From: Nemertoderma westbladi
Lineage: Eukaryota > Animalia > Xenacoelomorpha
NCBI GenBank assembly: GCA_032718475.1
Contig: JAUCBJ010005335.1
Location: forward strand, 1 to 64,000
Length of the DNA: 64,000 nucleotides
Direction of reading: 5' to 3'
Both the position numbers and the translations under genes were made by a program. The notes under the pieces are model-generated. The model was given only the letters and a program-made list of their open reading frames with translations, searched no databases and was not told where the DNA came from. Positions 1-63,169 of this stretch are shown here, piece after piece (position 1 is the stretch's first letter; the number at the start of each line of letters is the position of its first letter).

Positions 1-66
1 CATGACTGACTATCTTTGAATTCAAATTTTTTTTTATGAAATTTACTTTTATTTAATTTCATTTAG

Positions 67-710
67 ATAAATGTGAAGGACTGCGTACCATTAAAAATGA
101 GGACATCGTGGCCACAGAAATGAACAGCCTTAATGGTTTCCAACACCATGACACAACAACACCGAGAGGTCCGTGGACCGTCATCCAAAGGAGGTTTGAT
201 GGATCAGTTGATTTCGATAGAAACTGGGATGAGTATGCTGCAGGATTTGGAAATGTCACCTCTGAATTTTTCTTAGGTTTAGAAAACATCCATACACTTA
301 CTTATGGAAAAGGAGCGTTTCTTAGGATAGATATGTGTCGCAGCGATGGAGTTTACAGATACGCAGAGTATGATTCATTCTATGTTGGACCAGCGCCTTT
401 GTATAAGTTGAACATCTCTGGATACAGCGGTGATGCTCGCGATAATATACTAGTTGAGGACCCACCCTTTAATCTACGTTACTTAAATGACATGGCGTTT
501 TCAACAAAGGGTCAGGATAATGATGGAACATTCCAAAATTGTGCAGAAATTAATGAAGCGGGATGGTGGTATAATTGGTGTAGCGATTCTACACTCAACA
601 GTGTATTCGGAAAGATTTCGAGTTCGGTTTGGGGTACATTCACATCTACAACGCCTCTAGCGATTACGGAAATGAAAATAAGGAATCGTGGAAGCGGTAA
701 GCAAATATAG
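67..710 (+). CDS. Fibrinogen C-terminal (FReD) domain exon of a host gene (ficolin/tenascin/angiopoietin-like)
   Basis: ORF 108-710 has WTVIQRRFDGSVDFDRNW, GFG..EFFLGLENIH, FSTKGQDND and GWWYNWC motifs. Acceptor-like ...ttcatttag ends at 66; a donor-like G|GTAAGC follows 696, so the exon may be 67-696. Confidence 0.85.
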
Positions 711-2440: not shown

Positions 2441-2689
2441 CTGAACTGACTGAACCTGCAACTACTGAACTGCTCTAATTACCGAATTAGGCCTACCGCG
2501 ATATCTGATGCTGATATGCGTTTTTGTTTAGCCCTGCCCCGGTATGTCAGAACTGACTGACGTTGCAGACCTTACTGTCGGGCAGTCGGGTGAATGTTGG
2601 AATGTGTGAATAGTAAAAAGTAAAAACCTATTCACAATTTAAATTACCGGTAACTGCCGTAAATCTATCTAAAGACAGATTTGATTGCA

Positions 2690-3212
2690 ATGGCGGACCA
2701 GGAGTTGTTGAGGCGGCTAAAAAAGAGCCACTCCGGCTTCAAGGCAAACTACACCCGTTTAGTAAATCAACTGGAAGCAATGTTCAATGATATCCATGCT
2801 GTCAGTCCAAATGATAGGCCTGCAGCCGTAATTCAAAATTTGCAACTATTGCTAGGTAAAGTTGAGGTTGCCTTCGATAAAATAGGTGATTCCATTTTGG
2901 TTTTACAGGAACACGATATCGACTGTGATACGGAGGAAGACAATTTTGATTTATGTTCCTCCAATATGATTAAATATAGGTCTGTTGTTGTAACTTTATC
3001 TAGTCAGGTACCGACACCCCCTAGCGTACCAGTAGGTAACGTCGGGCCTATTGCTACTGATCCCATACCGGGGGCAGTAGGTACCGGTAGCCAACCGACC
3101 GCCAATGCTCCACGAGCTCCAGTAAATAAACCCCCGATTCTTGATGATGACGTCACAATTAAAAGTTTTAATCGGTGGAGGAAATCGTGGAGAAATTATG
3201 CTAAGGTGGTCC
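2690..3212 (+). pseudogene. gag: Gypsy gag, 5' part (split by BEL/Pao insertion)
   Basis: Removing 3213-21787 restores the frame: ...NYAKVV-QLNKQPRDEQ...SKMEH. Confidence 0.8.
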
Positions 3213-4368
3213 TGTAAAAGCTTTTGCGTCATTAACCGGTTATTTTCCCTTAAAGTACTCTGTAGTTGGTTTACCAGGCATAAAAAGGCCGTGTCCTTGC
3301 TGTACTGGTGTTTTAGAGGACATAAAAGTCATTTCCTCTGTATTTGTACTTTAGAGGACATAATCCGCAATCTCGTGACGCGATAAGCTAGATACTCTTG
3401 AAAACAGTGTCGCTACCATGACGACGGCTAACAGCTGATATTGCCACGTCGACATTTCTTTGTTTCTTTGTTCTCTCGTTGTTCGGTTGACCAATCAGAG
3501 CGTTTTTTGTCTCTGTGTTGGAGGTGGATACAGAACTCAGTAGTTCAGTGTTATGTTTTTGCCCAGAGCCTAAGAACACCGGCTTTTGGCACCTCCGTGT
3601 TTCAGTCTTTAGTCTTACATTAGTAGGCTTAATTATAGAACGTATATCTGTTATCTAACCAAACGAGCTACTTACTTACTCACTCACTATCCATAAATTA
3701 CTAATATTACTGCTTTTGCTGTCGGTTATTCATTATATTTGTTGATGAAATATTATATCGGAATACTGATCAATAGTCAGATACCCCACCTTCTTGATAT
3801 ACTAAAGGTTAGAGAGACCGGTTACAGATAAACGATTGCGACCTATGTTAAGTGGTTTGAAGTGAATCTAATGCTATTTCATATGCCCGACATAAATTAT
3901 ATGTTGCTCTCTTTATACGTGACCAAATTTAGTGAAGGTCGGCAGATTAGTGTGCAGTATTGTGCAGCATTGTGTATGAGTGTAACTGATAACAAAGCAT
4001 CTCCTAAAGAATGCGCCATATACGTGAATCTATAGCCTTTTCGTTGTGTCTAGTTTAAGCCATAACTCTGTTTACATATTTAGAGCGCCACGTCCTAAAA
4101 GGAACTGTTAATATTTCCCGAAAGTGAATAATATTTGTCAGAGATTATATATTACGATCAGTCGAATAATACAGTAGGCTTACACCATCAATCATTAAGC
4201 TCCGAACTCAGTCTCCCGGGTATATCCAACGGGTGAATGATTGCGCATAGACTGGCTTCGGCTAATGTAGTGTATCAAATACTCGTCATAGGCTAAAGAC
4301 TATCTATCATCCAAAAGACATTCTAATTTTGGCAGGTTAAACTGTCAAAGGTCTTAAAAGCACAAACA
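3213..4368 (+). repeat. 5' LTR of E1
   Basis: Direct repeat of 20627-21782; two substitutions seen by eye. Confidence 0.95.
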
Positions 4369-4379
4369 ATAACAGATAT
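4369..4379 (+). promoter_or_regulatory. Non-tRNA primer-binding site candidate of E1 (ATAACAGATAT)
   Basis: Abuts the LTR CA end, lacks TGG, and is the exact reverse complement of 3644-3654 in the LTR. Confidence 0.7.
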
Positions 4380-4714
4380 TTGGTTCTGATTGTGGTGTAG
4401 GCAATAAATATAGTTTAATATTGTTTTTGGTAAAAACAATAACAGATATTGCTTCTGGATTGCGGTGTAAGCAATCTAGTCGAAAGTACCGGTCGACCGG
4501 AAACCTGTAGGCCTGACTGCCTGATCATCCGAACCGGTACTTCCAGCAGGTACAGCAGTATTATTCGATTTGATTATTATATGCCGGTAGGTCTTAATAA
4601 TTAATCGGGGATGCCTGGTTTTTATTGGGATTTTACTTAGGCCTATTTCTGTCAGTTTTATTTATTTGTAGGCCAGTATTGAGCAGAAGGCGTGTAAGCC
4701 TGCTCAGATTGTAC

Positions 4715-5280
4715 AGATAATTTGTAGGCTTGACTGTTGGCTAACTGTTGATTAGGTCTGAATGGATTGCAGTGCATGTAGAGTGTATGTCCGATAAAGA
4801 ACGGTTAGGAAGTAGGGGCAGCCATAGCTGTAAGGTAAACCCCCATCTAAAGAATAAGTCGTACTACTGGGTTAGAACGCATACTACTTAACCATTTCGG
4901 AGTCTGCATGTCCTGTGGTTTATTTAGGCTTGATAGTAGTCTGCCATCGTTTGGTCTGTACTTTGTTTGTGTAGTCTGTACGGGTAGCGTATAATTTTAT
5001 TTAGATAATTTGTAGGCTGGATAGTTGTCTGGCTGCTGTTGGGTTTGAGGAAATTTCGGTGTGTTTAAAGCATCTGTCCGATAAAGAACGGTTAGGAAGT
5101 AGGGGCAGCCATAGCTGTAAGGTAAACCCCCATCTAAAGAATAAGTCTTACTACTGGGTTAGAACGCATACTACTTAACCATTTCGGAGTCTGCATATAC
5201 CGTAGTTTGTTTAGGCTTCATAGTAGTCTGTCAGTATTTGGTCTGCATTTTGTTTGAGTAGTTTGTACGCGTAGCGTAAT
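4715..5280 (+). repeat. ~290-bp tandem duplication in the E1 leader
   Basis: Block GTCCGATAAAGAACGGTTAGG...CATTTCGGAGTCTGCA occurs twice; an equivalent duplication is present in E2 (~59870-60420). Confidence 0.8.
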
Positions 5281-6627
5281 ATTTATTATTCAGAGTTTAT
5301 GCTATTATTCGCAACATTCATATCCCCAAGTTTATTCCTACAGTAATTGTGTTTGTTATACATACCGTTATAGTTAAACTAACCCCGGTACTACATCAGG
5401 GCTGCTCGGCGTAGGTAAAGACTGGTGATTTTGTGCACCGGTCACTCCAGCAGATGCCGTGGTTCTTTTAGCTGTTCAAGTATTTTTAACTACTAATTAT
5501 TTGTTGTACAAGTACTTGTACCTAATTTAGGGTTTAGTGTACAGTACTTTCCGAAGGTGATTAGTGTGTAGGCAGTATATTTGTGTTGTAAAGTGGTTAA
5601 TAGGCACGTTGGTTCTGGTAGACCGCGGTAATTAATCTCTAGGTAGGGACACTCCGTGATACATAACGTAGTACCTATAGCGATATGGTTATAGGTCGTC
5701 AGGCGGTGGTATTTTCCTATCTGGACAGCGCAGTATATTTACTACTACTTATTATTTTCAAATACCGTAGTAACCTGTCCGTTGTAATAACCAGATATTC
5801 TAACCCTTTGTTAGGCTGGTTAGTAGACTTCTTGTAAAATTACCCTAAAATTCGTATTTGTGTATTTGTAATTAAATTTTTGTGTTTATTTAGAGATTGT
5901 AATCTCAACCCGAATTGTACGTAATTTGTAGTATTAAGTAACTTAGGTAAATTAGAATTATTTGTTTTAGTGTCTAACAAGTAGCACTCCACTGAGAGCG
6001 CACAGCTTATGTGTAGTGACTCCCCCAGAAATAATAACATTTATTTCAAACATTAACAAAACCCATTAAACGGGTATATATATATTATAAATCAACTCAA
6101 ACGATTTATAAATAGTAGGCCTGCCATACAACAATTAGGTCTCAATATCAGTTGGACTACTGCTTAAATAACGGCAATAAAGTAAGTTAAAGTAACCAAG
6201 TAACCCTTAAAATTCAGAAATTCAATTATTCTAAAATAATTGACATACCGGTATTTACAATAGGCTTATTATATTTATTTCTATAAATTTTAGGTTGAAA
6301 TCATACTGGTATTCTGTAATTAATTCTAGTCTGTAATTATACTTATATATATACATTATAAGTGTAAACTGCATACCGGTATCCACGATAGGCCTATTAT
6401 ATATTTATATATATTTGTGCTAAAATTACCTACCGGTATTCTGTGATAAACTAGTCTGTAATAATACTTATATATACTATAAGCATACCGGTATACTAAT
6501 ATATTATATATCACGCTACACTGAGTAGCAGTATCGGTAATTAATTACTAGGCTAGCAGTTAACACTGAATTACTAGACTTGCTTAGACTGTAATATAGC
6601 AGTAGACATTCAACTGTGTAAACAAAC

Positions 6628-9600
6628 ATGTCTGATACTAAGCGGAACCTGTCAGACAGTTTATTAGATGTAACTATCTGCGACTCAGATAGAGGTGTAG
6701 AACCGTCTAGTTCTAAGTTCAGTTCACCTCCCACTGTGAGGAAGGTCATCCCTCCATTAGTATTAACAGAACCTAGGCTGGTCCAACATCGTAGGTCTAT
6801 CATAGGCACTCGAGCTCAGGTTAAGCGGGACCAAGAAGCAGCGGAACAGCAACAACCCGCAAGCCAAGAACTTATTTCTGAGCGGCCCGACAGCTCCAGT
6901 AGTGAAGATACTGTAGAGCTGACACCCGAGCGCGGAGCAAGGATGACGGATGCGGTTTATTCGGATCCCCTTCTCATCCTTCCTGCAGCCGTACTCACTA
7001 GGTTATTGATCGCGGTGGAAGAACACCAGATCGATTGGGCGAGAAGTAAGCGATCAACTAAAGATAGTTATGAGGGATACACAAGGGAATAACTGAATTC
7101 TATGGTCGAGTCGCAATGGAACTTCCCCGGACCCAGACTCCCGTTTGATTTATCAGAAGCTGCCTGGGAAGACATACACCGGATGGGAGTAGCCAAGGAA
7201 ACCATCGATCCAGCTGTGTGGAAGAGGTCCGCAGCCGGATACGCACAGGGATTCTTCAGCTCTATGGAGCGAGTAAAAGAACAACTGTTTCAACAACCTC
7301 AAGGACCTCAAGAGCAGGGACAACTGCTTTATCAAGTTAGAGAAAGAATTCTGCGAATCAGGCTAATATTATCAGCCTTTGAAGAGGCTTCTAAAAGAAG
7401 ACAAGACACGTCGTTGCAAGTTGCCGTAAAGACTTGGTTTCAACGGGTGAGTCGCCAGGTTCAAGGAACAGCTCAGTGGAAAGCTCAGCTGGAGGAGCGC
7501 TCAACCCATGGAGAATCAACAGACGCTACTTTTTCCCAAGTGGAAAGTGAAGCGACGGCAGAGAAACCGCATAAGAGGGATGCCATTGACATCTATCTGT
7601 CAGACTATCAGCGTTTTTTGGGAGATGAAGAGTTGAGGAGAAGGCTAGATGGACTTAGCCCTAATAGTGAAGGAGCACAGCGTGTGCTTGACGCCATCGA
7701 CGTGGATAGGTTAGCAGCGAACCAAGCTAAATTCGATGAACAACTCCGCATCGCTAGAGACCAAGAAGAAAGGGTGAAGAAAAAACGCATAGAAGACAGA
7801 AAGAAAGCAGCAGTAGCAGCTGCAGAAGCCGAAAGAGAAGCGGCAGCGGCAGAGGCAGAAGCGGAAAGAAAAGCGGCAGCGGCAGAGGCAGAAGCGGAAA
7901 GGAAAGCAGCCGAAATGGAAAGAAAAGCGGCAAGAGCAGCGGCAGAAGCGGAGCGGATAGCAGCTGAAGAGATTGCCCAATTAGAATTGGAAAATATTCA
8001 GGAGAATCAAGACTGCATAAATAAACAGTTAACAGCTAGTAATATGCAGATGATGAATCGATCTACTCCCAAAAGACAGGGATATACATCATCTGAGGAA
8101 GGCGATACCACCGATACTGAAGGCAAAGGAAATAGATCTCACCTAAGCAGACGCAAAAGAACATTCCACCGTCAGAAATTGCCTGATTTGCCTCCAGCTG
8201 TTAGAAGGCAACTAAATAACACCAACTTAGGTAGTACAGAACCCACAGACCAAATAATTACAATAGAGAGACTCCCTACTATAGTAGATGAGCCTGAAAT
8301 AATTAGGCCTGTTCCCGAAGCCACCCTTTCGGTCGTAGAGACACCTGTACTCCCTGAACCTACCTCTCAATTCCCTTTGCACAGCACTAAGCTACCTGTG
8401 CCCAGCAGAACAGCCCATGAGACAGTTCATGCCCTGGACTCCGAGCGAAATATTCATGATTTGTCGCCCGTTGTCCCTCGTCCGCCCGCTACAACGTTGG
8501 CGAATCCCGCTTCGGTGGTCGAATGGGTGGATGAGAGACGACGGGGGATGGATCTCCTGCTCGGACAGATGCAGGAGACCGTTCAGCAATTCAAGGGCAC
8601 AGTAAGGGAAAGTAGATTAGAGTTGCAAGAAGTGCAGCAAAGTATCGCGCTAGAACGCGATAAATTAGTAAATACACAAAAGGGTATACCAACACCCCCC
8701 GTAACAATGTGTCAACCTGTTAGGTCTGAAGTATCTCATGGCAAGGTGTGGAGCCTACACGCATCTATACTGCTAGCGAAGTAGAAACTCCTATAGTGAA
8801 CCCTATTAAGGGTAATTATAGACCTGTTGATAATGATATTCCCTATAGACCGGATCATAATCCGATAAATTTATATACCGATAACTCGATATTAAATAAC
8901 ACGATGGCCCAAGAAAGTTTTACGCGTCAAATGGCTAGAACCGAAGCCCGGCAAGCGGTAAAGGTGGGAGAGATCGTCAAGTTCAATGGAGATGAGATGA
9001 AATGGTTACCTTTTAATGAATATTACAAAGATAACATACAGAACTCTGTGCTATCTAATGGAGAGAAACTTAGATTCCTCATCGAGTGCTTGGAAGGATC
9101 TCCCAAGTTAATGGCGTTAAAGTTTATTGGACATCCAGACGGATTAAGACAAGTTTGGGATACACTAAACATCAGGTATGGTAATAGGAATAACATAGCT
9201 GGGTATTTGTATGCAAAGTTGGTAGCGCCCCGAAAGTTTATTAGCAGCGGAATTATAGAGTTTTCCGATGAGATTCAGGAGATCTGCAGACAATTAGATT
9301 GGCTAGGTAAGTCTCATGAGTATCAGAATGCTATGGTTATTAGAGCAGTGGCTTCTACTTTACCGAAGGGTGGAGTAGGTACACGCTGGGATAAGAAAGT
9401 GTTATATATGATGGAACAACAACGACGAGACCCTACCATGGCTGATCTCATGTCATTCCTAGATGGAGAAGTGAAATTACAGCTCCTGAAACTGTCCAGA
9501 GAGAAGACACCGGAAAACAAGGTAAGTGAAAAACCCGTCGCTAGGAGAAAGGTAACACCAGTGTGTTATACAGATGATGGCGAAAGCCAGACTTCTCAAG

Positions 9601-12600
9601 GAGAAGATAGCGGGAAAGACACTGACAGATCTTATTACGTAAATAAAATGCCTAAAGATCAGGTAAGTAAATTCAAGTCTCGAACAAATGACAGGAGAGA
9701 ACAGGTAAGAAAAACTCCTCCTACGTCTCCCAAGAGAATTCAGGTGAGAAAGCCCGAAGAAAAGACAAGTGTACACAATGTTACTCAGAGTAAGGTAAGT
9801 AACATCAAACCGAAATGTGCACTATGTGATGGGACCCATCGCTTAAATATGTGTGATGAATTTCTAAAGAAATCATTAACTGAGAGACGTGAAGTCATGT
9901 GGGACAAGCGGTTGTGTTATAATTGCCTCAGACAAGGACACCAACGGCGAACCTGTTACTCTGACACAAGATGTGCCAAGTGCGGTGCGAAACATCATAT
10001 CTTGTTGCACACTGAATTCGAGCGAAATAGTCCGAGTCAGGTAAGTGATTCCGAACTACATGTCCAATTCAGTGATGTGAACGACACTGATCAATCTGAG
10101 ATGGAAGGATTCTATACAGACGAGTTCTCCGACGAAAACGAATCCTGTTACACGATAAACACCACAGTGTATCGAGCACTCATTTATGAAAAAGATACAG
10201 ACATTGACCTCGCTCTAACTACTTCTGATCGACAACCATCTTGGAAAGCGCCAACTTCCAATGTAGGGATTAGAGAATTTCCTGTGGTACAGGTAAGGGT
10301 CCACGGACCAAAAAGGAGTTATGTAGTGAACGCCCTCCTTGACTCCGGTAGTACAGGAACATTCATCGACAAAGAGCTAGCCGAGGACATATTCGCTGGA
10401 CAACCCAAGTTCCGAACTAAGCTAAACATGTCAGGAATTATGCAAGTTTGGAAATCCACAGTAACAGCGGATTATATGTAGGTGCGTTGTCCACCCCCCA
10501 GGACGAACTAGGAGAACATAGCATAAGGTCAGTGAAAATGGTGGCTATAAAGAACTTCGCTACTACTCAAGCAGACCTTTATAATTGGGACGAGGATGAG
10601 AGCATCCAACATCTTAAGATACCTCGATTCCAGACAGATTATCCTGGAGTGCAAATACTCATCGGTCAAAATGCGCATGAAGCGCTCGAGACATTGGAGA
10701 AACGACCTGCTCAACCGCAACCTCTACAAGTTTATGCGGGAAGAACTAGAGTAGGTTGGTACTTTACTGGCCCTTCCCGTAGAACTCTCATGGAAAGATT
10801 ACCGAAAGATCAGGTATATCAAGCGCGAGAATGGGAAGTTGAGAACAGTGAGTTCGACGATCCAACTGAGGGAACTCCATACTCCTCAGACAACGACGAT
10901 ATACATCAACTCTTTGATGAGGAGAATGCCATCGATCTCCTTAAGGAAAGCGAGACTTGGCAAAATCAAGTGAACTTATGTCAACTCCTTCTTCCATCCG
11001 AGCGAGACGACTATAACGACGAGCTTAATGACGTTATTGAACGTTATAATGCCAAGACTCGGGATGAACACGCCGTGAGATTCTTTACTCAAGAGGTCGT
11101 AGAGCCCAACTCCTACGATAAGGCCCTATCGGTGGAGGAAGAAAGAGCCAAGCAGATCCAAGCGACAACTACTCGTTTTCTTAAAGATCAAGGTAGATAT
11201 GAGATCGGTCTTCCTTTCCGAAAGCGAGAACCAAAGTTCATTAACAACAGACCTTTGGCAGAGAAAAGAATTGCTCAACTACATCGACGCCTTACGGCAA
11301 ATTCTTCAGCTAAAGAAATGTATAAAACACAGTTGAAGAAGTTTATTAGCAAGGGATATGCGGAGCTAGTACCGGAAGAAACCCCTATAACTGAGAGAAC
11401 GTATTACTTAACTCACCATTACGTTCCCAAACCCGGTAAACCCCATGAAGTACGAGTGGTGTTTGACGGTTCCGCCCTTTATATGGGCCAATCTCTTAAT
11501 TCTGAATTGTTACCCGGACCCAACTTACTCTAATCCTTGTTGGGAATACTATTAAGATTAAGACAATACTCCATTGCTTTCGCCTCAGATATAGAAGGCA
11601 TGTTCTTACAAGTCAAAGCGCTGGATAGGGATCGAGATAGCCTACGATTTTTGTGGTGGCCTGAAGGAGACCTCAATAAGAAACCGGTGGAGTACTGGAT
11701 GACCATCCAAGCTTTTGGGATAATCTCGAGCCCTTCAAACGCCTGTTCCGTGGTACGCACCACTGCGGATGACAACCGAGACGCCTTCTCTAAAGAAGTG
11801 ATCGACAATATCAAACGAGACATCTACATGGACGATAATCTAAAGTCCCTTCCATCAGTCGAAGAAGCCATTGAGGTCGCTAAAGGAACGGTAGAGTGCT
11901 TAAAAAGAGGTGGATTTCGATTAACTAAATTCACTAGCAACTCCCGTGAGTTTCTGGAGTCGATCCCGGTAGAAGATCGAGGAGCAAAAGACCTAGATCT
12001 AATAAAGGATGATCTCCCAGAAACTAAGACCCTTGGTTTGAAATGGGACACAGAAAGAGATATCCTGTTTTTCCAACTAAAACAGCGAGATAATCCAGTT
12101 CGGACTAAACGGATATGTTTGAGTATCCTGAGCACTTATTTCGATCCATTGGGATTTATTAGCCCAGTTATATTGATTGCTCGGAGTTTAGTACAACAAA
12201 TGTGGCTTGAAAACCACTCATGGGACGATCCACTTAAGGGAGAATTATTAAAGAAGTGGATGAAATGGGAAGATTCTCTACCAGCCATCGAAAACTTCAT
12301 AATTTCCTGTTCATATTTTGGTCATGTTCTCCCTACGTATTCATATCAACTCCATGTGTTTGGAGACGCCAGCGATATGGGAATAGGTATAGTAGCTTAC
12401 CTAAGGGTGGAAACTCCGGACGGAATCAAAGTTGCCTTGGTTACCTCTAAGGCATTGATAAACAACAAGTTGAAAGTTCCTCGAGCGAAGTTAAAAGCGG
12501 CTCTATACGCTACAGCCATCGGCCGGAATGTAACAGAACAGATCGACTATCCCCTGGAGAAAACTGTCTATTGGACCGACGCTTTACTCGTGTTGGAGTA

Positions 12601-14664
12601 TATAACCAATGAAGTCTGTCAGTTCAGCGTCTTCGTTACCAACAGAGTAGCTATTATACTCAGTCGCACGACGATGGATCAATGGAGACATTGCCCCGGA
12701 ACGATTAATCCAGCGGACATCGCTTCCAGGGGAGCAACTCCACAAGAACTGGTAGATACTCCAGACTGGTTAGGTGGACCCGACTTCCTCTACAAAGAAG
12801 AAGAAGAATGGCCTCCTCATCTTACTACAGCAGAAATTAGACAGGCCAAGGGAGCGGAGAAAGTCAAACCTAAAACTCAGGCGAGTAAATCGAAGTTATT
12901 CAAACCCACAGTGGATCTGTCTGTACTACATACTTCCGGAGACGACGCTTTGGATCAGAAACCCACAGCCACAAATAAACCCATTGTGGAAATCCGTGAT
13001 AAGGATTGGAAATCTGGCATACCAGACGTCTCGCAAGGACTCTCACCCCTTCTGCAGAGAGCGATACATCACTACAGTTCCTGGAATCGGCTCTGTAAGG
13101 CCGTTACATATTTAAAGAGATGTTTTCACCATCACTACTCTGGGATGAAAACAAAGGGTGATACCGCTCCAATCACATCAGTGCAGGTCCATGTTATTAA
13201 AGACCTTCCTAAGTATAAGGTACCCGACAAGTTTCTGAAGGAGAAGATCAGTTATCAGGAGCATGAAGAAACCAACAAACAGATGCTGAGACTCTTACAA
13301 TGCTATGAAGATTCCGATAAGTATTTCCTGTTGTTGAAAAATCCACAGATGCGCTTAAGGGATCGTTTCTCTAGCACAATGATAGATGGGTTGATACGTG
13401 TTGGAGGAAGGTTAACGAATGCCCCATTATCCTTTGATACTAAGTTCCCCATACTCATTAGAAATCTTGAAATACAAGTCAAGATGATTGTAGATGTTCA
13501 CAGCAAACTTTATCATGCTGGTAGAGAACGAGTTCTTAGCGAAATTCGAACTCGCTATTATTTTTATAAACCCCGTAGAGCTCTGAACCAAGTTCTTAGG
13601 AACTGTATACCCTGTAGGAAAGCATTCAGTAGTATTATGAACCACCCTTTACTAATACCGGTATGGATTTATTTGGCCCTATTGAAGTATATCGTGCTAG
13701 GACTATAGTCAAGAGATGGTGTGTAATCTTTGTTTGTATGACTTGTAGAGCCATCCATCTCGATATGGTGAACGATTTATCTACCAACAGCTTTCTATTA
13801 AGCTTACGACGACAGATCGCTCGCTTTGGCACTAGTAACACGATGAGATCTGATAAGGGAACCAACTTCATTGGTGCCAACAATGAAATCAAAGCTTACG
13901 TCAAAGATTGGAACCAAAGACAGGTGGACGACCAACTACGAGTAACAGCGTCTAGTTGGACCTTCAACGCCGCCGACGCCCCTTGGTGGGGAGGAAGTTG
14001 GGAGAGATTAATAAGAAGCGTGAAGACAGCATTTCATTTTATAGTGCCTTGCCGCGCTTATCTCACCGACGAACTTTTGCGGACGTTAATGGAAGAAATC
14101 GCCGCCTATCTCAACGAGAGACCGCTTATGCCAGTCTCATCGAGTCCCGATTCCCTGGAAGCGCTAACACCCGCGCACTTCCTACTGAAGAAACCTGTAG
14201 CCATGCTCCCACAATCGGAAATCACAGACGGAGACGAATACTGCCGACAAACTTGGCAACTCATGCAGTTGTTATCCCGTCGTTTCGCTGACCATTTCGA
14301 AAAACATTATCTGCCCACGCTACAACTTCGAACTAAGTGGTTTGCGCAGCAAGAAAACGTCAGCGCTGGAGACATGGTGCTTATTGTCGATGTGGATCTT
14401 CCACGTAAGCGGTGGCAGACAGGTCGTATAATCGAGACGCACATCTCAGATGACGGTTTGGTGCGATCGGTAGAACTCGTCGTCATGCGACGTAACTTCA
14501 AGAAACCGGGAATTGTCTTCGAGACGCAGCAGCTCAATCGCCCGGTGGGACGTTTATGTTTACTGGAAAGAGACAGAGAACTCTCCGGAAACTATGGGAG
14601 ACAAGATACTCTTCCCACGACCACCTCCCTAATCCAACAAACATCTAGGGACTCCCCAACTTAA
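6628..14664 (+). pseudogene. pol: BEL/Pao gag-pol polyprotein of E1, disrupted
   Basis: Fragments 6628-7092, 7102-8784, 8748-10481, 10448-11533, 11537-13708 and 13663-14664 are colinear with E2. Stops at 7090 and 11531; frameshifts at ~8740, ~10478 and ~13640. Confidence 0.93.
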
Positions 14665-16294
14665 CAACGGCTGGAGTGGGTGTGTGACCATATTACTTTA
14701 TATTTGTATTTGTTTTATTTTTATATTTATGTATGTAGTATTATGTAATTTTATTTTAATCGTTTTATTTAATTTTATTTAGTAACATGTTATTTTAGTG
14801 ATCATTTAGTAGATTAGTGCAATATATTAGTGTTTATTACGTACGTAATTACTTAAAATATATATTTAGTGCGACGGCGAGAAATAATTATTTTTCTCTT
14901 TCCTTACTGTCCGTATCATATTATAAATACGTGACTACAGTAAGATGAAATATCCGTACTTATTAAAGTACAATAAAGCCACTACTATATTCAAGTATTA
15001 TTGGTAGGCAGAGTATTAGGAATGCAAAGTTCAGATCCTCGTGTCTCGGCTAAACCAAGCTCTGGGTAGACCTTGGAAACGACTTGCCTCTTCACACTGA
15101 CATTGCTTCGTGCGATATTGCTCTCATACCGTATATTAAATAATACATATAGTAGCGTGATGTCCCTTTAACAGTAGCGTATAACGCAAAATAAATCTGT
15201 TGAACCCTTTGACCATCTGCAATTCTAGTCGATTAAGATATCGCGGCACCCACCGATATACTTGAAAGACAAAATTCTAGAATCAGTGGTTAACGTTCTG
15301 GAATAAACTGGTGCCCATCCTAAATATTAATTATTAATATTTACAAAATCTGTCAAATTTTAGATCCTTTAACATTCTAGTCGATTAAGATATCGTAGCA
15401 TTTACCGATACTCTTAAAAAGACAAATTCATAGAATCAAGGATCCCAGTCCCCAGATATGCTCTGGAATCAAATTGTGTCTATTTAACATTAAATAATAA
15501 AATTTACGGGAATAAATTTAAATTCAGATATTTCAATGAATTTAATAAATTGTCATTTTGTACAATTTATAACATTCCCAAAATTCCATTAATTAATAGA
15601 TCATGGGAGCGGAGATTCACTCTATTAAGTGTATTTGTGTGCGAGAATCTCCAATGTATAGTCAATAGCCGATAAAATTCATAGAATCATGTATAAAGGG
15701 GATATTGACCATTAAAGAATTACTATTAAATAGCATCCCAGATCTGTATGCATGAGAATTACCCTAATTCTACCGCTAGCTTTCCATAATGTCACCATGG
15801 CAACAACCACGCTAGAATTAGAAGTGAGTTAAAAGAACAATAGAAGGCATGCCCCATTGAATAGCATAGGGAATAAATAGCGCACTGCTAGTATCCAAGG
15901 ATACATAATAAATACAGTGACATTCTGGAAGGTACTGACTAACGGACAAATGGCCCGAATGTGTGCAGTTTGTTGCAGTTGTGTTGAATTTGTGCGTTTG
16001 TAGGTGAATGTTACTACTAAGGTGTGTTTACAGTAGCGAGTCGCAATTGTGAAAGTAACCCTAACTCTCCAAGAAGAACCTGCAGTACATCTAAGCCTTT
16101 GGGACGGACAGTTAAGTGACTTGTGCCGGTTATCGTTGTCGTTGTGTAGCTACATCGTTGGCGAAAGCACAGCGACGACGGTACATCAGCGCTGAGGATC
16201 TTACACTGTCCGGGGGCAAAAGAGGGGTAGGCAGCGACGCCCGCTAGCCTAATATATATAAACTCATTATAATATTGATAAACTCATAGCAGAT

Positions 16295-19200
16295 ATGACT
16301 GAGTTGATAGAAGATGATCTTGGCATCAGGGAGCGATATACTCTACCTTTACAAGCGTTTGTCGATAGCTTGATACGCGGCGATGCTGGTCCAACTACTA
16401 CGGAGGATGATGGTCGTTATATCGAACCGCTAATGTCCCCGGAGCAACTTACGCGTGAATTGGACTATAGAAAGTTCACCGCTCGCTATACGCATCGTAA
16501 TGGTACGTATATGGACTTCTTAACCACTGGCCATCCTATCGATTTACACGACACGGACGATGTGGATACCGAAAGGGAAATGGTTTTATTTAAATATCAT
16601 ACCCAGCGGAATCGGAACGATAAGCCAAGAATAGAACACGAGAACTCTATTCGAAACAGACTCGAAAGAGAAGACGTTGAAGAGCCGGATAAACGTAACG
16701 ACTTCAACGATTATCTGGAATTCTTGAGAGAAACATACCTCAATATTGCCAGTCAACAGAATCTCGAAACTCGATATCCTCAAGGTATATATCATAATCC
16801 TATGATAGAACTCAAACGACTCTATTTCACTATGATGTATCTTACCGCCGATCGACCGCTACCCGTTGTCCCGGATAGCTTCGAACAGATGGAGGAATAT
16901 TGTAAAACTGGAGAACGATCACCCGCGTTTCCTCTGCAAGACATGCGTCTTTGGTATTACTGCGACGAATGCCCTAGACCCAATCAGCAAACGGAAAGAC
17001 ATAAACATCCGCGGAGACGTTGCGCTAAACACAGTTTTACACGATATACTTACGGGAGTTTCGAGCGAAACCTGTTCGACGTGTCCCCTGCGGTCGCTCG
17101 ACTCAAGCGATCCTTGAACAAACCGATGATCAGAGTTCCGGAATACTCGGTCAGACCTCCGCATTCCTCAGTTAGACCTCAAACTCTTGACCCTAATAGT
17201 ATCACGGATCCTCCCGAACTGTACTCACTGTTCAAAGATCTAGTGTTACCCGAACAGTTGATCGGTGGCACTCCGGTAGTAGGCTCACGAGACATTCGCC
17301 AACCCTACCTAGCTGGATTGGGACGTGGTCATCTAATATCACCATTTAACCCATACAACCGTCCCGGCTTCACCTCTATCCAACCCGTTACGGAAGTCGA
17401 AGAGAGCGTCGTACGAAATGCATTAGACGCTATTTGGCAGAAAATCGGAAAGGGAACGTACGATTGTTTGGAGAAGCGTAAATTGCAGCAACAAGTCCAA
17501 GCGGTGAAGGAATTAGCTTTACCCCAGTTCGATAGAGAAATACAAAATCTCGAGGAGGACATCGAACGTGGAAGAACCTACTCTTTACAAGAGTTTCTAG
17601 ATGAGCGTCTACAACAACAAGCGGAGGAGAATCAGCTCGAGGAGAGACATATAGAACTGGATGAGAGAGAAGAAGCGGCTTTAGCTCAACCCGAAGTGCA
17701 AATCCTTATGACGGATCTCTACTCTAAAACCATTCTTCATCCCTCGATGGCTCCCCATTTCGGAGACAAACTTTTTGCGACGGCACAACCCCAACCGGTT
17801 GATATCAACCTAAGATCTCGCGATCTTATCGCCGACGCTCCTCTGTTGCAGCGTCCGCCCATCGAACCCGCTCGTGTCGATGGTATACTCGTTGAACCTC
17901 CGGACAATAGAGCAGATCTTGTCCGTCGCATGGTACACGATGTAAACATACGCGCTAGACCTTTACCGGACTCGTTTTATGGGATCAAAGATCACCCTTA
18001 TTACGTCAATCTAAAACAATATTACATGGTAAAACCGGAAGATCCTACACATAGTCTGAAGTTTCTACCGTTAATAAATCCTCTCGATATTGTCGAACTC
18101 GAACAACTGCAGAAACATCTGGATCAGTTAGTTAAAGTAAACTCGTTTTGAAAACCATATAATGTTTCCAGGATAGAGAAAGAAACAATACCTCCGTATA
18201 ATCTTGATGGATTCATCAAAACTCGTTTAGTGCACTGGAATCTTGATGTGTTATTCGAGGAGGAAAGAATACAACAATATGGAGATGTGGAAACATATAC
18301 CACACAATATTTAAAGTATAAAGACCTGCCTAATGCTAGCGAATGTGCTACCTTGTGGCATCCTGTGGGAATGACACTCGAAAACGCCACTAAAGAATAG
18401 AACGAAACTCTTAACGTTATCGAGATGTATGGAGTTGTCACTTATGATAACAAAGGTAGCGTTCCGGTTGGAGAACTTGGAACTACGCGGATGATACATA
18501 TACGAGGACTCGCTGGTTCTACCCACGTATTTACTCGAGCGTGTTCCGACGTTATTGATTATTCTTTTGAAACTCTTACTGAGATACAAAAGAAACTCCG
18601 ACATGGACAATTTGAACTCGCGCAGCGTTACGTCACCGACACCGAGCGCAAGCCGGCCATGGGTATCGATGGATCGATGTTACCCCAACCCGTGCTCGAG
18701 ATGCTGTTTAACGAAGGAATCCTTAAAATCGGCTCAGCTGTTTATGGAGACCTACAGAACGACTTTCGGAATATGGAGAACATTCCATACCCCTTCGTTG
18801 ATACTCAGCTGATTGCTCCTTGGGCAGAAGGCCGAGGTTTCTTCCGCACTACGTATGCCAATACACCCAACGGAATTACCAAAGTACAACGAACCTCCAT
18901 TGGACATCTTGCCTTTCAAGAATACGGATGGAATTTCAAGGTTGGAAATCCTATAAATTACCAACAAGTATACGGAGATCATTATTCTCGTTTATACTTT
19001 GATGGACCATTGACCGCACCTGGCGCCGTGTATAGCTTTATGAGTGTTCCACTTCGTCCCTCCTTAGCCATATACACGATCTTTGAAAACGCAGCACTTG
19101 CCGGTTGGCTAGCCGATGTGTGCAGTCGTACCATACGCGCCCATCCCTTAATACTTGGAACCAAACTCACCAAGTTAGATGAACACAATAAATTCATACG

Positions 19201-20548
19201 CTTTGAATGTTTCAGGCGCTTTCTGACTCCGTTCCGTAACGTTGATAGTCAGTTCAAGGACTGCGCTCTGACCAAACTCAGCCTGAGAGACTCGGCGGCG
19301 GAGAAGCTAAACAGCGCGGGATTTGCCCTTTTTCAGGACGTTTGTATACAGAACTTGCACTCATCTGTTATACAAAGACCCCGAATACCCACGGGTTATT
19401 CTGTCGTCGAAGTTCAGACAGTGGGTCCGCTTGCGGAGACAGCCGCACCTACCTCAGCTATGCAATTGGAAGACGAACCAATATGCTTAGAAGCTGAAGC
19501 GATTCAGCCTACAGCGCCCCGGAGCAGCGATAACGACTACGTCTTAGAGTGGTATCAAGGTCCATAATGTCTCACCGCATACGATTATCGACACGCTAAC
19601 TATGTTTCTCGAAAACGTTGTCGATTATGCGCATCGAGAGACCATTTCACTCCTATGGACTCAGACGTACCCTGTTCCTATTTCCACGAACAACCAATGA
19701 TGGAGATATATTGTGCGTATTGCAGACTTAATAACTCTCATATTTTTGCAGTCTGCCCCCAATTTATGACTCAATGCCACCACTGTCAACTTAAAGGACA
19801 TGCCAGTTATAATTGCCCCTTTAATCACGATTTAGAGAGCGTAGATGAAATGATTACCCTTCGCTACATCCGAGCTTGGGAAGCTAACGCGGATTTACAC
19901 TGTGAGTCCCGTCATCGATACTACCCTGGACGCTCTTACGAGGGAGTTTACGCGTTCCATCCTTATTTATTAGCGTCTGTGGAACAAAAAACACGCATAC
20001 CGAGTTACGAGCTAATGAAGCGTGTTGGTGAGTGTATTTCCACTAAATTTGTTAGAAGATACCTTAGAAACGTCAATCCTAACGATATTACTTCATACCA
20101 TTTGATCAATTATATCCGTCAAGACCCTGAGTATGGCGATTTATTTATCAACTCGCACCCTGAGTTACAGGAAGTATCTCGACGGCCCTACGAATATCGA
20201 GCCCGAGAACGCGAGCTGGAAAGAACTATTAAACCAAGGAAGTTTCTCACCACTCACGGTCCGCCTACCGCCATTGCCCAGACAACCCGTCAAGGACCCG
20301 TAGGAGCTGCTGTCCTGAGGCGCGCCCTAAAGGCTGTTAGACCTTGCTCCACGGAAGTTGATATCGATCAACCAGGTACCTCGACCGGCGGATACACCGA
20401 TCGCAATCCGAAACCTTCTGATGCAATTGTATTGCACCCTTCACCCAGGAGTTACAGCCCTCCTAGTAAAGTGGCTCGCCCCAAAGAGAAAAGGACTCTT
20501 ACTAGCCTCAAAAAACTGCGTAAACGCCGTCCACGTAAGAAAGACTAA
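16295..20548 (+). pseudogene. Accessory ORF of E1 (~1417 codons; DEDDy exonuclease-like domain, CCHC zinc knuckles, basic C-terminus), three in-frame stops
   Basis: ORFs 16295-18151, 18425-19567 and 19655-20548 share one frame, broken only by TGA 18149, TAG 18398 and TAA 19565 (E2 has CAG at the last). Confidence 0.8.
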
Positions 20549-20618
20549 CTGTTTAGAGTATTTTTATATTTTAGAAACTGTGATTTGTTGTATTTTATAG
20601 ACTTAAATCCCATTTTCT

Positions 20619-20626
20619 GGGAGCGG
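20619..20626 (+). promoter_or_regulatory. Polypurine tract of E1
   Basis: GGGAGCGG directly before the 3' LTR TGT; identical in E2 (47352-47359, minus). Confidence 0.75.
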
Positions 20627-21782
20627 TGTAAAAGCTTTTGCGTAATTAACCGGTTATTTTCCCTTAAAGTACTCTGTAGTTGGTTTACCAGGCATAAAAA
20701 GGCCGTGTCCTTGCTGTACTGGTGTTTTAGAGGACATAAAAGTCATTTCCTCTGTATTTGTACTTTAGAGGACATAATCCGCAATCTCGTGACGCGATAA
20801 GCTAGATACTCTTGAAAACAGTGTCGCTACCATGACGACGGCTAACAGCTGATATTGCCACGTCGACATTTCTTTGTTTCTTTGTTCTCTCGTTGTTCGG
20901 TTGACCAATCAGAGCGTTTTTTGTCTCTGTGTTGGAGGTGGATACAGAACTCAGTAGTTCAGTGTTATGTTTTTGCCCAGAGCCTAAGAACACCGGCTTT
21001 TGGCACCTCCGTGTTTCAGTCTTTAGTCTTACATTAGTAGGCTTAATTATAGAACGTATATCTGTTATCTAACCAAACGAGCTACTTACTTACTCACTCA
21101 CTATCCATAAATTACTAATATTACTGCTTTTGCTGTCGGTTATTCATTATATTTGTTGATGAAATATTATATCGGAATACTGATCAATAGTCAGATACCC
21201 CACCTTCTTGATATACTAAAGGTTAGAGAGACCGGTTACAGATAAACGATTGCGACCTATGTTAAGTGGTTTGAAGTGAATCTAATGCTATTTCATATGC
21301 CCGACATAAATTATATGTTGCTCTCTTTATACGTGACCAAATTTAGTGAAGGTCGGCAGATTAGTGTGCAGTATTGTGCAGCATTGTGTATGAGTGTAAC
21401 TGATAACAAAGCATCTCCTAAAGAATGCGCCATATACGTGAATCTATAGCCTTTTCGTTGTGTCTAGTTTAAGCCATAACTCTGTTTACATATTTAGAGC
21501 GCCACGTCCTAAAAGGAACTGTTAATATTTCCCGAAAGTGAATAATATTTGTCAGAGATTATATATTACGATCAGTCGAATAATACAGTAGGCTTACACC
21601 ATCAATCATTAAGCTCCGAACTCAGTCTCCCGGGTATATCCAACGGGTGAATGATTGCGCATAGACTGGCTTCGGCTAATGTAGTGTATCAAATACTCGT
21701 CATAGGCTAAAGACTATCTATCATCCAAAAGACATTCTAATTTTGGCAGGTTAAACTGTCAAAGGTCTTAAAAGCGCAAACA
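20627..21782 (+). repeat. 3' LTR of E1
   Basis: Direct repeat of 3213-4368, followed by TSD GGTCC. Confidence 0.95.
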
Positions 21783-21787
21783 GGTCC

Positions 21788-23004
21788 AGCTTAACAAGCA
21801 ACCACGTGACGAACAAGTCTCGGCATTTTTTGGCTACTGCACACCTCTGCTTTTGTCTAAGATGGAACACGTGGTACACGTTCCACAAGACACTGACCTC
21901 TGTTTAGAAGAATTTTTGGACATGTTCGAAACATATCTACGAGGTAAACAGAATGTCTCCTTGGATCGGTTGGAGCTTACCTTATGCCGACAACAAGACG
22001 GCGAGAGTTTCGATGACTTCTATACCCATCTATGCGAATCTGCTGCTACAGCGGGGTTACGTTCCATGGGGCACGATGAGTGGATGTCAACCTTAATAAC
22101 TGTCGGCATACAAAATGAAGAAATTCGACAAGATTTATTGGGTAAATTTCCGGCATTGAACCACGATGAAACCGTAAAATTTTGCCGCTGTGAAGAAGCT
22201 GCAAGAATACATCGAGTCAAGGTGAAAAATGTACTGGCTGGGTCGAGTAATAAATCTTCAATGTTGACAGCTGCTTCATCCACAAACCAAACTACTGGTA
22301 AGAAAAAATATAAGGGCCGATATCGATCGAAGAGCAGGAATAGGAACCCGTCAAGTTCACGAGGCCCTCAAGCGGATTCCTGCACTAAATGTGGTTACGA
22401 TAAACACTATGGTGGCAAGGAGTGCCCGGCAAAGGGAAAAACGTGCTCATACTGTCACAAATCCCATCACTTTGCACAAGTGTGTCGAAATAAATCGAAT
22501 TTCGGCAGTAATAACCGGAACCGTAGCAGTTCTCCAAAACCCTCATCCGCCATCCACATCGCCATGGTTAGGCATTCCGCTACTCCATACGTCTCAGTAA
22601 CGTTATTCGACCATGTAACAAAGAAGTCAGTTGGAGACCAATCTGCAATTCCTGATACCGGTTCCCAGTGTACCATCGCCGGTATAGAGCTGCTCCATAA
22701 CCAGGGAATTGACATCGCCAACATTAATCCACCCAGCGAGGAGAAACTGGTGAGTGTAAATGGGAAAGTATTAAAACAGTTGGGTTGTATTACATTTTGT
22801 ATAGTTCTAGAAGGTAGACAGGTTATTGAGGAAGTAAAAATATGTCAAGATGTTGAATTTATGTATCTGTCCCTCAATACATGCAAAAAACTAGGTATTG
22901 TTCCTTGGAGTTTTCCAAAACCCCCTCCATTATGCAGTGAAATGAGAACTGCGACTCACCTATGCTCTGGTTGTCAATCTAACTGTGTACACCCAAATTT
23001 ATAA
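21788..23004 (+). pseudogene. gag: Gypsy gag 3' part plus protease
   Basis: RQQDGESFDDF, CTKCGYDKH..CPAKGKTCSYCHKSHHFAQVC knuckles, PDTGSQCT protease motif. Confidence 0.85.
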
Positions 23005-23156
23005 AGGGATCTCAACCTATTTTTGTACAAACCTCCCACACAAAGTGGATAAATAACTTACCTAAAAATCCTTCCGACAATGAAATAACAAATATTCGCG
23101 AGGAGTTAATTAAACATTATACAACGGTTTTTGATTCAAATATTGAACTGTGGAGC

Positions 23157-25483
23157 ATGGTAGGCTCTACTATTGGTGATCCCATGAGGATCGAGTTAAA
23201 AGCGGATTTTAAACCCTTTGCAGTTCATGCAGCTCGATCTATTCCCTTTGCAAGGAGGGAGCAAGTGAAGAAGGAGCTGGATGACATGGTTGCTGGTGGT
23301 ATAATTGAACCAGTCGGTGACCGCCCCACCGAGTGGTGCCATCCACTCGTTGTGGCAAATAAACCTAACGGAGGGATTCGAATGTGTGTGGATCTCACAA
23401 ACCTTAATAGACAGGTAAAGAGGGTAATCCACCCAACAAATCCACCTCTTAATGTTGTAGCTGACATTTCCCCAACATCCAAATATTTTACCGTCTTAGA
23501 TGCCAAAAAAGGATATTGGCAAGTCGATCTACACCCAGAAGCTAGAGACCTGACCTGTTTTATAACGCCCTGGGGACGGTTTATTTTTCTCCGTGCACCT
23601 ATGGGTTATATTAATACCGGAGATTCTTATAATTTAAGAAATGATTTGGTATTGTCAGATATAGAAAATATTCACAGACTGGTGGATGACATTTTGGTTG
23701 AGGATAATGATTTTAAGATACATACTGACAGAATATGTACTGTTCTAGAACGTTGTGCCAAACACAACATAACATTAAATGTGCAGAAATTCAAATTTGC
23801 TAAAAGTGAAGTCAAATTTGCTGGATACATAGTCACTGATTGTGGAATTAAGGCTGACCCCAATAAAGTGGATGCAATATCACAGTTTCCAACACCCACT
23901 AATCGATCTGAATTGAGATCATTTATGGGACTGGTCCAGCAATTGGCCCCCTTTTCGAATGAAATCAGTAGTGCTGCTAGTCCTCTCCGTGATATAATGA
24001 AGATGAGGAATGATTTTATTTGGACTGAAAATCATAAAACTGCATTTAATGAGGTTAAAAAAGCCCTTGCAGCCCCCCCCTATTTTAACAACATTCAACC
24101 CAAAATCAGAGATAGTATTAGAAACTGATGCGTCACGTACCAAAGGTCTAGGATTTGCAAAAACTAAACTATTCAGACAGTTTTAGATTACTTCAATGCG
24201 GATCTAGATTCCTCACCGAAGCGGAAACTCGATATGCTACTATTGAGTTAGAAGCCCTCGCAATCTTGTGGGCGACTCGTAAATGCAGAATGTATTTGTC
24301 TGGTTTACCCAATTACATAGTAGTCACGGATCACCGCCCCCTCTTGCCGATTTTTAATACTCATACTCTTGATATGGTGGAAAATGTCCGAATTCAGAAT
24401 TTTAAAATGAAACTTAGCGAATATAATTTCAATTTAATATGGCGAAAAGGGAAGGACCACTGTATCGCCGATGCTCTTTCCCGTGCCCCCGTTTCAGATC
24501 CTGACATGGAGGACGAAAATGAGGGGATAATAATGAAGAATATTTCTGCCATTGCTATACAAGCTGCAGTTACAGCCTTAGATGACTCAGAATTTAATCG
24601 ATCGCCGCCATATGTTGATCCTATTCTAGAGAAAATTAACAACGTTGCCACAACTGATGAGGATTATCAGGCTCTAATTAATGCTGTAAAATCTAACTTC
24701 ACACTCCCATTTACTAATAACTCGTTTGTACAACAGCTGAAGGGTACATGGAATGAATTGTCTATAGACGATAACCTTGTCATATTTGGCCGACGATTAA
24801 TTATTCCTAAAACACTCCGTAAAGAGGTCATTGACCGTTTACATGACTCCCATCAAGGTATTGAGCGGATGAAGCGACGATCACGTGAATCAGTTTACTG
24901 GCCTGGAATCAACAGTGACCTCACTAATAGAGTCAGACAATGTTCTAAATGTCAAGAACGGTTGCCTAGCAACCATAAAGAAACATACTTTGCTGATCCC
25001 CCACCATCTAGAATTTTTGAATCGGTTTCTTCAGACCTCTTCTACTATGGTGGAAAATGTTATCTTACATACGTGGATAGACTCTCAGGGTTCCCATTCA
25101 TAGCCAGATGGGCATCCGACCCATCGGCCTCCCAGGTTATTGCACAGGTCCGTCAATATTTTGTGCAAACCGGAGTACCCGTTCGCATGCGTTCGGACGG
25201 GGGGCCCCAATACCAGTCCAAAGAATTTCGCCATTTTCTTTGTCGCTGGGGCGTTCGTTGGGAGCCATCCACACCATACTACCCCCAATCGAATGGACAT
25301 GCTGAGGTTAATGTGCGGATTTTGAAAAACCTCGTGGCCAAAGCCGATGACGGGCGTATAGACACTGAACCGTTTTTACGTGGCCTTCTAGAACTTCGGA
25401 ATTCTCCAAGAATAGATGGCTGTTCACCTTCCCAAATAGTTTACGGCCACCCGCTCCGTTCACAGGTTCCAGCACACTACAGA
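23157..25483 (+). pseudogene. pol: Gypsy RT-RNase H-integrase, frameshifted and truncated
   Basis: IRMCVDLTNLN, LDAKKGYWQ, LVDD, YATIELEALAI, TDHRPL and integrase core; frameshifts near 24080 and 24155. Confidence 0.9.
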
Positions 25484-25920
25484 TTAAATATTCTGTTGTT
25501 GTGATAGACATCGTGCATGATTTTTGATACCTCCAATTTATATATACTATCAATTGGGAGAATGTTTAAAGTCTTATACAGTGTTTTGGAGGATGCTTGC
25601 CGGTGGCTATATGTAATTGCCCTTAAAATTTTATTTAACTCTTATCCGTAGTGGTTTTATCACATTATTGGATGAATAGATCCAAACTGCTAAACTGTAT
25701 AGGATATATGGGTGAATAAGAGCAAAGTACAACATGTGCATAATATGTTCTGAAAAAACATAACGAAGCTTATAGAACAACCCAACAAATTTTGATATCT
25801 TCTTATTAATGTATTCGAATGCGGTTTCCAAAATAATTTACTGTCAATAATCAATCCAAGATATTTTGTTTCTGAAGTTTCTTTAACTACTGTATTATTC
25901 ACTATACTGTATACTGTGGG
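25484..25920 (-). mobile_element. Degenerate LINE (CR1/L2-group-like) ORF2 C-terminal fragment
   Basis: TKYLGLIIDSKLFWKPH / KISKFVGLFYKLR..LYFALIHPYILY..VW / KILRAITYS..LYKTLNILP. Confidence 0.7.
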
Positions 25921-38753: not shown

Positions 38754-38816
38754 CTGTATACAATAGGCCTTTTTGCTATTCACTGTACCCTAGATTAGCT
38801 CGCGGCTTCGAAGTTT

Positions 38817-45613: not shown

Positions 45614-46131
45614 GCTTTTATATTAGAAACACTGTAATATAACAATTATTTTTATAATTACTACTTCTACTATCAGCATGCTGCATTGCAACTGCATTAT
45701 CATGTACTACATATATATTAATAATGCTGTGCCGGCTTGTAAACAAAATTGCGCTGTCACATCTCCCTAACACCCATGACATTTGCTAGATCATCCGCAT
45801 CTTCAAGGCCAGTGTTTAGATACGCCTCTAAGAGGCGTCCCAAGAAAGGCATGAGTTGTCCACCATGTTTATTTATTCGCCAAAGCACAATATTATGCAC
45901 TGGCTGGTACTCACGGCGAAACCATCGTCCTGCAAAGCGGAGGCGGTTCAGGTCAAGTGTCAAGCTAAGGAAGACTAATGGATGTTTCCTCCAATGTTGT
46001 ATAGAGTCTGATTGGAGATGTGTTCATTATACTTGACACAATGAACGCGGCACATTATTCTTTTGAAAGTGCCATCAAGAGATTTGGAATCCTCTGCAGT
46101 TAGAAGCCAGCACAGACTCCCATATACGAGT
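45614..46131 (+). repeat. 518-bp direct duplication flanking E2, left copy (contains RTE 3' end)
   Basis: Matches 62025-62542; two substitutions seen by eye. Confidence 0.92.
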
Positions 46132-60780: not shown

Positions 60781-60791
60781 ATAACTGTTAT
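60781..60791 (-). promoter_or_regulatory. Non-tRNA primer-binding site candidate of E2 (ATAACAGTTAT)
   Basis: Abuts the 5' LTR end; complementary to the LTR motif at 61516-61526. Confidence 0.7.
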
Positions 60792-62700: not shown

Positions 62701-63169
62701 CCGTTAGCATTGATTGCTCGTCATTTACCCCGCTATTGATTGCCATAGAATCCGGTAGAGTGTCATACTCAAGATTGATGCTATGAGAATCCGTAGGCCT
62801 AAGAGATAAAACAATCCCTTATTCTCAATTATTATTGTCTCAACACTTTCTACAATTAGCGGCTGAAGTCCTGTGCCATCATCATCTCTGATATTGTTGT
62901 TGTATGCTTCTAAAACAGATAAATCTCGAAAAAAATCTCGAAAATTGCTTCACCGTGAACATCTTCAGCTACGCTCACTAACTGATTGAACATCTCCAGC
63001 TAAACTCCATAATCGGCCTGCTGCATTGAAACTGGTCATTGAGATGCTGGCCTAAGAAAAATATTTTGCTACCACCATGCAATCCACAATTGACAAGCCC
63101 AATGCAGGGGATTAAGCATTAGCATAATTAATTTGAGAATTAAGAATGCTATGCCGGCTTATCTACGAA

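Follow-up and report, generated by a model that had tools for sequence, protein, structure and literature searches.

Two related LTR elements in the window

The window, that is, the whole stretch of DNA that was analyzed (64,000 nt), consists of animal DNA with many LTR elements, two of which, E1 and E2, are the subject of this study. E1 spans 18.6 kb on the plus strand (3213-21782) and has a 5' LTR of 1156 nt (3213-4368; TG...CA) and a 3' LTR (20627-21782), which differ at 2 of 1156 positions, with a polypurine tract at 20619-20626 and a 5-nt target duplication flanking the element. Its gag-pol region (6622-14664, plus strand), which encodes DUF1759, reverse transcriptase (RT), Peptidase_A17, integrase and DUF5641, is split into several open reading frames (ORFs) by stops and frame changes. 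E2 spans 15.9 kb on the minus strand (62024-46132), with a 5' LTR of 1233 nt (60792-62024) and a 3' LTR (46132-47351) that are 97.6% alike, and its gag-pol region (50500-58560) has an in-frame stop near 52897. The two elements are 94% alike in RT and 79% alike in the conserved half of the LTR.

DUF1759, Peptidase_A17 and DUF5641 were above the Pfam cut-off in both E1 and E2, and, among the homologs listed, 120 of 120 carried the Pao peptidase domain (PF05380), at 27-42% identity; the closest named homologs among the matches listed were those of corals and echinoderms. The domains and homologs thus uphold the assignment of both elements to BEL/Pao made in the initial annotation, and E1 and E2 are sister elements of a divergent BEL/Pao family, not gypsy elements. 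No Pfam match to a chromodomain was found in E1/E2, and their Pol is not that of the Ty3/gypsy chromoviruses by which the Tf1/sushi group is defined. They resemble canonical BEL/Pao elements (Belpaoviridae, Semotivirus) in the DUF1759 gag, Peptidase_A17, DUF5641 and the domain order, as well as in the TG...CA LTRs, the polypurine tract and, for E1, the 5-nt target duplication. According to the ICTV, however, BEL/Pao elements are 4.2-10 kb long and are primed by host tRNA through an 18-nt complementary site (PMC8742986), whereas E1/E2 are 15.9-18.6 kb long, are without a tRNA site, and have a long gag N-terminus and extra ORFs.

The region ahead of the DUF1759 gag domain is unusually long (~800 aa) and contains an Ala/Glu-rich repeat (6622-8784 in E1 and 56100-58560 in E2). 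The extra ORFs of E1, which lie 3' of the integrase (16262-20548, plus strand; ~4.3 kb) and belong to no known family, end in a Cys/His-rich part; there was no Pfam match to them at 0.001, and a search with the middle one of the three found no homolog. E2 retains remnants of them (47430-48890, minus strand) and is without the middle 2.8 kb of this region. With respect to the surroundings, E1 is inserted within a gypsy gag ORF (gypsy parts at 2663-3212 and 21783-25504), another gypsy-type element occupies 34444-38789 of the minus strand, and an ORF with a fibrinogen C-terminal domain, identified by Pfam, is present at 57-710 (plus strand). Where a 5-nt target duplication would be expected, the two sides of E2 carry a direct repeat of 518 nt (45614-46131 and 62025-62542; 99.6% alike); a 74% copy of this repeat is found at 63139-63596, and there is a small insertion at the end of the 3' LTR of E2. 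Such flanks may have resulted from an aberrant integration event or from two insertions in a tandem unit that recombined with each other.

Complementarity between the LTR and the post-LTR site

Flush with the end of the 5' LTR of E1 lies an 11-nt putative primer-binding site (4369-4379, plus strand), which is complementary to an 11-nt putative self-primer within the LTR (3644-3654, plus strand), a copy of which is also present in the 3' LTR (21058-21068). E2 has the corresponding putative site (60781-60791, minus strand) and putative self-primer (61516-61526, minus strand), with the 3' LTR copy at 46864-46874. These six 11-mers, which were placed by the initial annotation, were all found at the positions it gave, and its descriptions of the duplex as being exactly 11 bp long and flush (offset 0) with the terminal CA and of the LTR ends as being without a TGG-type site held for both elements. 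With no TGG at the LTR end, the 18-nt tRNA-complementary site that the ICTV gives as a trait of the family appears to be absent; a TGG does occur 13 nt beyond the LTR of E1, but neither E2 nor a second copy of the E1 site (4439-4449, plus strand) retains it. This second copy results from a duplication of the leader (~70 nt, window 4362-4500) that takes in the LTR end, the site and the leader. Because the 3' LTR of E1 ends at the first copy, it was presumably the first site that was used for the insertion of E1.

Matches of this kind were expected by chance 0.0013 times (E1) and 0.0011 times (E2) in an LTR of the same composition, and pseudo-sites taken from the interiors of the elements matched equally well in 0 of 600 cases for E1 and 1 of 600 for E2; since E1 and E2 share a common ancestry, their two matches amount to roughly one event (p ~0.001). 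When the pairs were swapped, the match was reduced to 8 nt for the E1 primer with the E2 site and to 7 nt for the E2 primer with the E1 site. Only 2 of the 11 pairs in the duplex are G-C pairs, and the E2 site is near-palindromic and able to fold on itself. The joint change of the two partners between E1 and E2, which had been described as compensatory, is confirmed in that one paired position differs, but the description itself needs revision: the paired change is likely to be one primer mutation that plus-strand synthesis carried over to the site and not two selected changes. Even as a templated single mutation in the primer, it still points to priming.

The host sequence runs available were seven, all of them contigs and none recorded as RNA, and the E1/E2 family was abundant in them, with 8561 matching records in run X1. 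Across the family copies, a block at 3617-3655 (plus strand) is conserved, which ends one base past the putative primer and is followed by a variable A/C-rich stretch. In X1, the depth was ~130,000 at 3653-3655, ~32,000 at 3656-3658 and ~2,000 at 3662-3664, representing a drop of about fourfold and then, cumulatively, about 60-fold past 3655. A drop of the same shape was observed in X3 and X4, X5 having no coverage, so that it was seen in 3 of the 4 runs for the region 3605-3680; E1's own unusual downstream sequence may be part of its cause. No substitution row fell inside either 11-mer among the 40 listed of 226, and the host contigs varied in leader length and included one further site variant.

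The primer-site duplex was calculated to have a free energy of -10.5 kcal/mol in E1 and -10.1 kcal/mol in E2 at 37°C. For the RNA from the motif to the leader, the E2 primer helix was present in the minimum-energy fold, with a pair probability of 0.51 at 37°C and 0.60 at 20°C, and it was abolished in RNA begun 30 nt further upstream; the self-priming model, hence, needs a start near the motif. For E1, plain folding held the first site in a local hairpin with a primer-helix probability of 0, and with a long leader the second site copy won, with a probability of 0.84-0.92. A second helix, pseudoknotted to the primer helix, was predicted between the E1 LTR (4178-4194, plus strand) and the leader (4387-4402, plus strand), the latter being the strand that also forms the first-site hairpin. 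Its core amounts to -21.7 kcal/mol, and the 24-mer, at -26.1 kcal/mol, beat 150 of 150 control 24-mers. When its two strands were held out as a mimic of the pseudoknot, the E1 primer helix increased from 0 to 0.95 with the short leader, and the second site copy still had 0.84 with the long leader. E2 has an LTR-leader helix at the homologous place (60982-60997 with 60762-60775, minus strand), which carries one paired change and is weaker (p 0.47), and the E1 leader pairs equally well with the E2 LTR. The helix upstream of the primer duplex reached only 6-8 bp, and the z-scores of whole-region folding were 0.84 and -1.74.

Neither AATAAA nor ATTAAA was found in the E1 LTR, and no convincing intron was found in the LTRs of E1/E2. 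A candidate intron at 3808-4335 has a fair donor, but its acceptor fails the pyrimidine filter, and a junction through the middle of the motif gave a match of 10 nt only with a poor donor. One host run guessed to be RNA, consisting of contigs only and leaving the primer stretch uncovered, had no GT-AG joint in the LTR.

Own-LTR matches in related elements

Relatives were collected by an RT alignment search, using the best 80 of 533 confirmed metagenome loci and 24 loci from genome bins, and elements were kept where the LTR end was set by a second LTR copy and not by the site, resulting in 20 rows in addition to E1 and E2. Left out as extra copies of kept families were L007, L008, L044, L070, L094, L097, L099, L101 and L103; L033 served as the 3' copy for L034 only, L080 was a circular overlap, and the remaining loci were without an LTR end. 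Contiguous and splice-junction matches were both scored at offsets of 0-4 from the LTR end. The splice filter was loosened after the data had been seen, by which L023, L034 and L090 were resolved, with the same filter being used in the control, and the LTR end of L034 was likewise corrected afterward from its 3' copy. Loci L081-L104, the 24 that came from bacterial genome bins, hold animal BEL/Pao and are apparently host DNA that was mis-binned; a search of viral contigs for relatives found none. Two identical tandem BEL/Pao units, L050 and L051, lie on one contig 6138 nt apart, as expected of LTR-sharing elements or of the assembly of a circle, and the LTRs of L056, L068, L034 and L094-L103 end in TA, not CA.

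As a result, a match of 10-15 nt to the element's own LTR was found in 19 of the 22 elements, compared with 2 of 454 cross-family pairings, and the self-priming signature noted in E1 and E2 thus extends to many related families. The matches begin 0-4 nt from the LTR end, and 12 of the 19 are exactly 11 nt long, as in Tf1 (PMC7175516). Two of the three misses, L074 and L095, have TGG sites, with an own-LTR score of 4-5 nt, and these sites resemble the ends of tRNA-Met and tRNA-Tyr; for the third, L089, inspection by eye gave a junction match broken by a single mismatch. After four sister pairs were merged, there were 18 families, consisting of 2 of the tRNA type, 5 with contiguous matches (E1/E2, L065, L068, L069 and L086), 10 with junction matches and 1 near miss. 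Thus, a self-match is present in 14 of the 15 non-tRNA families other than E1/E2, in ten of them only across a predicted splice junction. The junction families have GTRAG-like donors, pyrimidine-rich acceptors and introns of 71-451 nt. The letters of the site differ in nearly every family, with the LTR partner tracking them; between L081 and L084, for example, two exon-end letters differ, as do the two paired site letters. The site of L023 starts with TGG yet matches its own LTR, and could also be tRNA-like. A blind scan of 30 loci with unknown LTR ends, which agreed with this pattern but was not counted, gave matches of at least 10 in 10 of 12 loci compared with 32 of 96 shuffles for full LTR regions, and in 5 of 18 compared with 45 of 144 for partial LTR regions.

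The primer-to-site distance is 714-724 nt in E1/E2 compared with 44-193 nt in the relatives, and the LTR-leader helix was found in 0 of 14 related families. A TATA-like box upstream of the match was found in 1 of 15 families only. Of 15 families, 14 have a pyrimidine-purine step at the 5' end of the match (background 0.51), a comparison made post hoc, and this bias may be a hint of a start site. In a quick tree, made without named references for the clades Sinbad, Suzu, Sailor, Pao, BEL and Tas, the contiguous families were scattered among the junction families, L069 being grouped with L047 with a support of 98. The branch of E1/E2 was long and came from an open fork that also holds the tRNA-type L074, so that a shared origin with the main group is at most a possibility.

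A self-priming model and its alternatives

From these matches and by analogy with Tf1, we consider it probable that E1 and E2 use the 11-mer of their own LTR as the primer of reverse transcription. The RNA would start at or near the motif, as inferred from Tf1, and its 5' end would fold back onto the site, with the second LTR-leader helix freeing the site from the local hairpin. Once RNase H had cut behind base 11, RT would extend the primer over ~715 nt before transferring to the 3' LTR, and the site would be rewritten as plus-strand synthesis proceeds through the attached primer. Such copying of the primer would account both for paired changes after a single mutation and for the fixed length of ~11 nt. 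In the ten junction families, the primer would be assembled by the splicing of an LTR intron at the RNA 5' end. Because the sequence through the primer would be inherited from the 3' LTR copy after the cut, an intron could persist even though it is removed from the RNA 5' end, and splicing of the 3' LTR copy would delete it, generating contiguous forms, possibly those of E1/E2 among them. For the broader proposition that in a large, mostly marine BEL/Pao branch a splicing-assembled self-primer, made by joining a very small first exon to the following LTR exon, replaced the tRNA, with the intron persisting via the unspliced 3' LTR and being repeatedly lost to give contiguous Tf1-like forms such as E1/E2 and with reverse transcription licensed by the spliceosome, we put the chances at even.

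The model follows what has been described for Tf1, in which, according to two reports, the first 11 bases pair with the primer-binding site (PBS), with RNase H cutting between bases 11 and 12 (PMC7175516, PMC5341516). In another, about half of Tf1 cDNA is stated to have the reverse-transcribed PBS at its 3' end, and the Tf1 PBS given there shares its first five bases, ATAAC, with the sites of E1/E2 (PMC11042837). An 11-nt LTR match to a post-LTR site, as in E1/E2, occurs in the Ty3/gypsy chromoviruses Tf1/Tf2 of S. pombe, Tj1, Tosmo and the Tf1/sushi and Tcn1 groups, all of which likewise have no tRNA site. The Tf1 "pretzel", as outlined in a preprint, consists of a central duplex and two flanking duplexes (bioRxiv 2022.12.06.519325); a possible flanking duplex, the predicted LTR-leader helix, is partly seen in our elements, being clear in E1 and weak in E2. 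Unlike Tf1/sushi, E1/E2 are BEL/Pao elements with an LTR of 1.2 kb, a loop of ~715 nt, and a start and cleavage that are putative, and primer formation by splicing, as predicted in their BEL/Pao relatives, is not described for Tf1/sushi in the texts available. E1/E2 are not members of Tf1/sushi but are likely to work like them.

Of the alternatives, it is unlikely, although conceivable, that the primer is made by the element and acts in trans, either as a short LTR-derived RNA or as the 5' terminus of another packaged RNA, which would be spliced in the intron-bearing families. The intron could then be kept with no need for the two LTR copies to be spliced differently, and the 714-nt loop would become irrelevant, and a free 11-mer does beat the local hairpin of E2 (cofold -21.3 compared with -15.6). 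The hairpin of E1, however, is not displaced by the free 11-mer, the predicted LTR-leader helix points to folding in cis, and Tf1 is described as self-folding in PMC7175516 and bioRxiv 2022.12.06.519325. We regard as rather improbable a structural or regulatory role of the pairing, in packaging, in translation or as a splicing sensor, combined with priming at or near the site by a host tRNA fragment or small RNA. Such priming would agree with the tRNA-primed status that the ICTV gives to the family (PMC8742986) and with the TGG at the start of the self-matching L023 site; against it, the match lies 0-4 nt from the LTR end and is absent in the tRNA-type families, no tRNA gene was found in the 64-kb window, and no Rfam match came near the gathering score in 3200-6700. 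Furthermore, the site varies in almost every family and its LTR partner tracks it, a pace that no one host RNA could keep. A chance match in AT-rich DNA beside a degenerate tRNA site, favored by the 2 of 11 G-C pairs, the shared ancestry of E1 and E2 and the broken coding regions of both elements, is scarcely credible, being largely refuted by the own-LTR survey (19 of 22 compared with 2 of 454) and opposed by the paired change and the conservation boundary, and the 2 LTR differences of E1 mark a very recent insertion, meaning that its site worked recently.

Self-priming in E1/E2 thus remains the preferred reading, with the weak duplex, the 714-nt loop, the rarity of TATA-like boxes, the lack of AATAAA/ATTAAA in the E1 LTR and the hairpin over the first E1 site speaking against it. 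The interpretation in the initial annotation is supported with amendments: the signature holds, but the lineage of E1/E2 shares it with most of the other non-tRNA families surveyed. No report of self-priming in BEL/Pao was found in the literature searched, most subscription papers, Repbase Reports and supplements being outside the search, and no discussion of their priming was found by term look-ups in four BEL/Pao papers (PMC554778, PMC3118150, PMC8220671 and PMC6238403). Descriptions of self-priming exist for Tf1/sushi and Tcn1, as does a prediction of it for copia TAR (PMC6317226, PMC4600332, PMC2864245). The initial annotation had associated this mode with the Tf1/sushi group, where it is indeed described, but PMC6317226 also predicts it from sequence outside that group, in the TAR lineage of plant Ty1/copia (Houba, Osr-1), which differs from E1/E2 in both superfamily and kingdom. 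An independent origin of self-priming in BEL/Pao is likely, although not proven, because PMC3601003 speculates that hairpin priming is ancestral.

If the model is true, self-priming would be present in a third LTR superfamily, and one that the ICTV lists as tRNA-primed. Self-priming would also explain BEL/Pao elements without a detectable PBS, which LTR finders based on tRNA would mis-score. The junction form in the relatives would represent a new route of primer making as well as a means by which a retroelement can keep an intron. Taken together with the other systems, it would mean a repeated escape from dependence on tRNA and possibly from silencing by tRNA 3' fragments.
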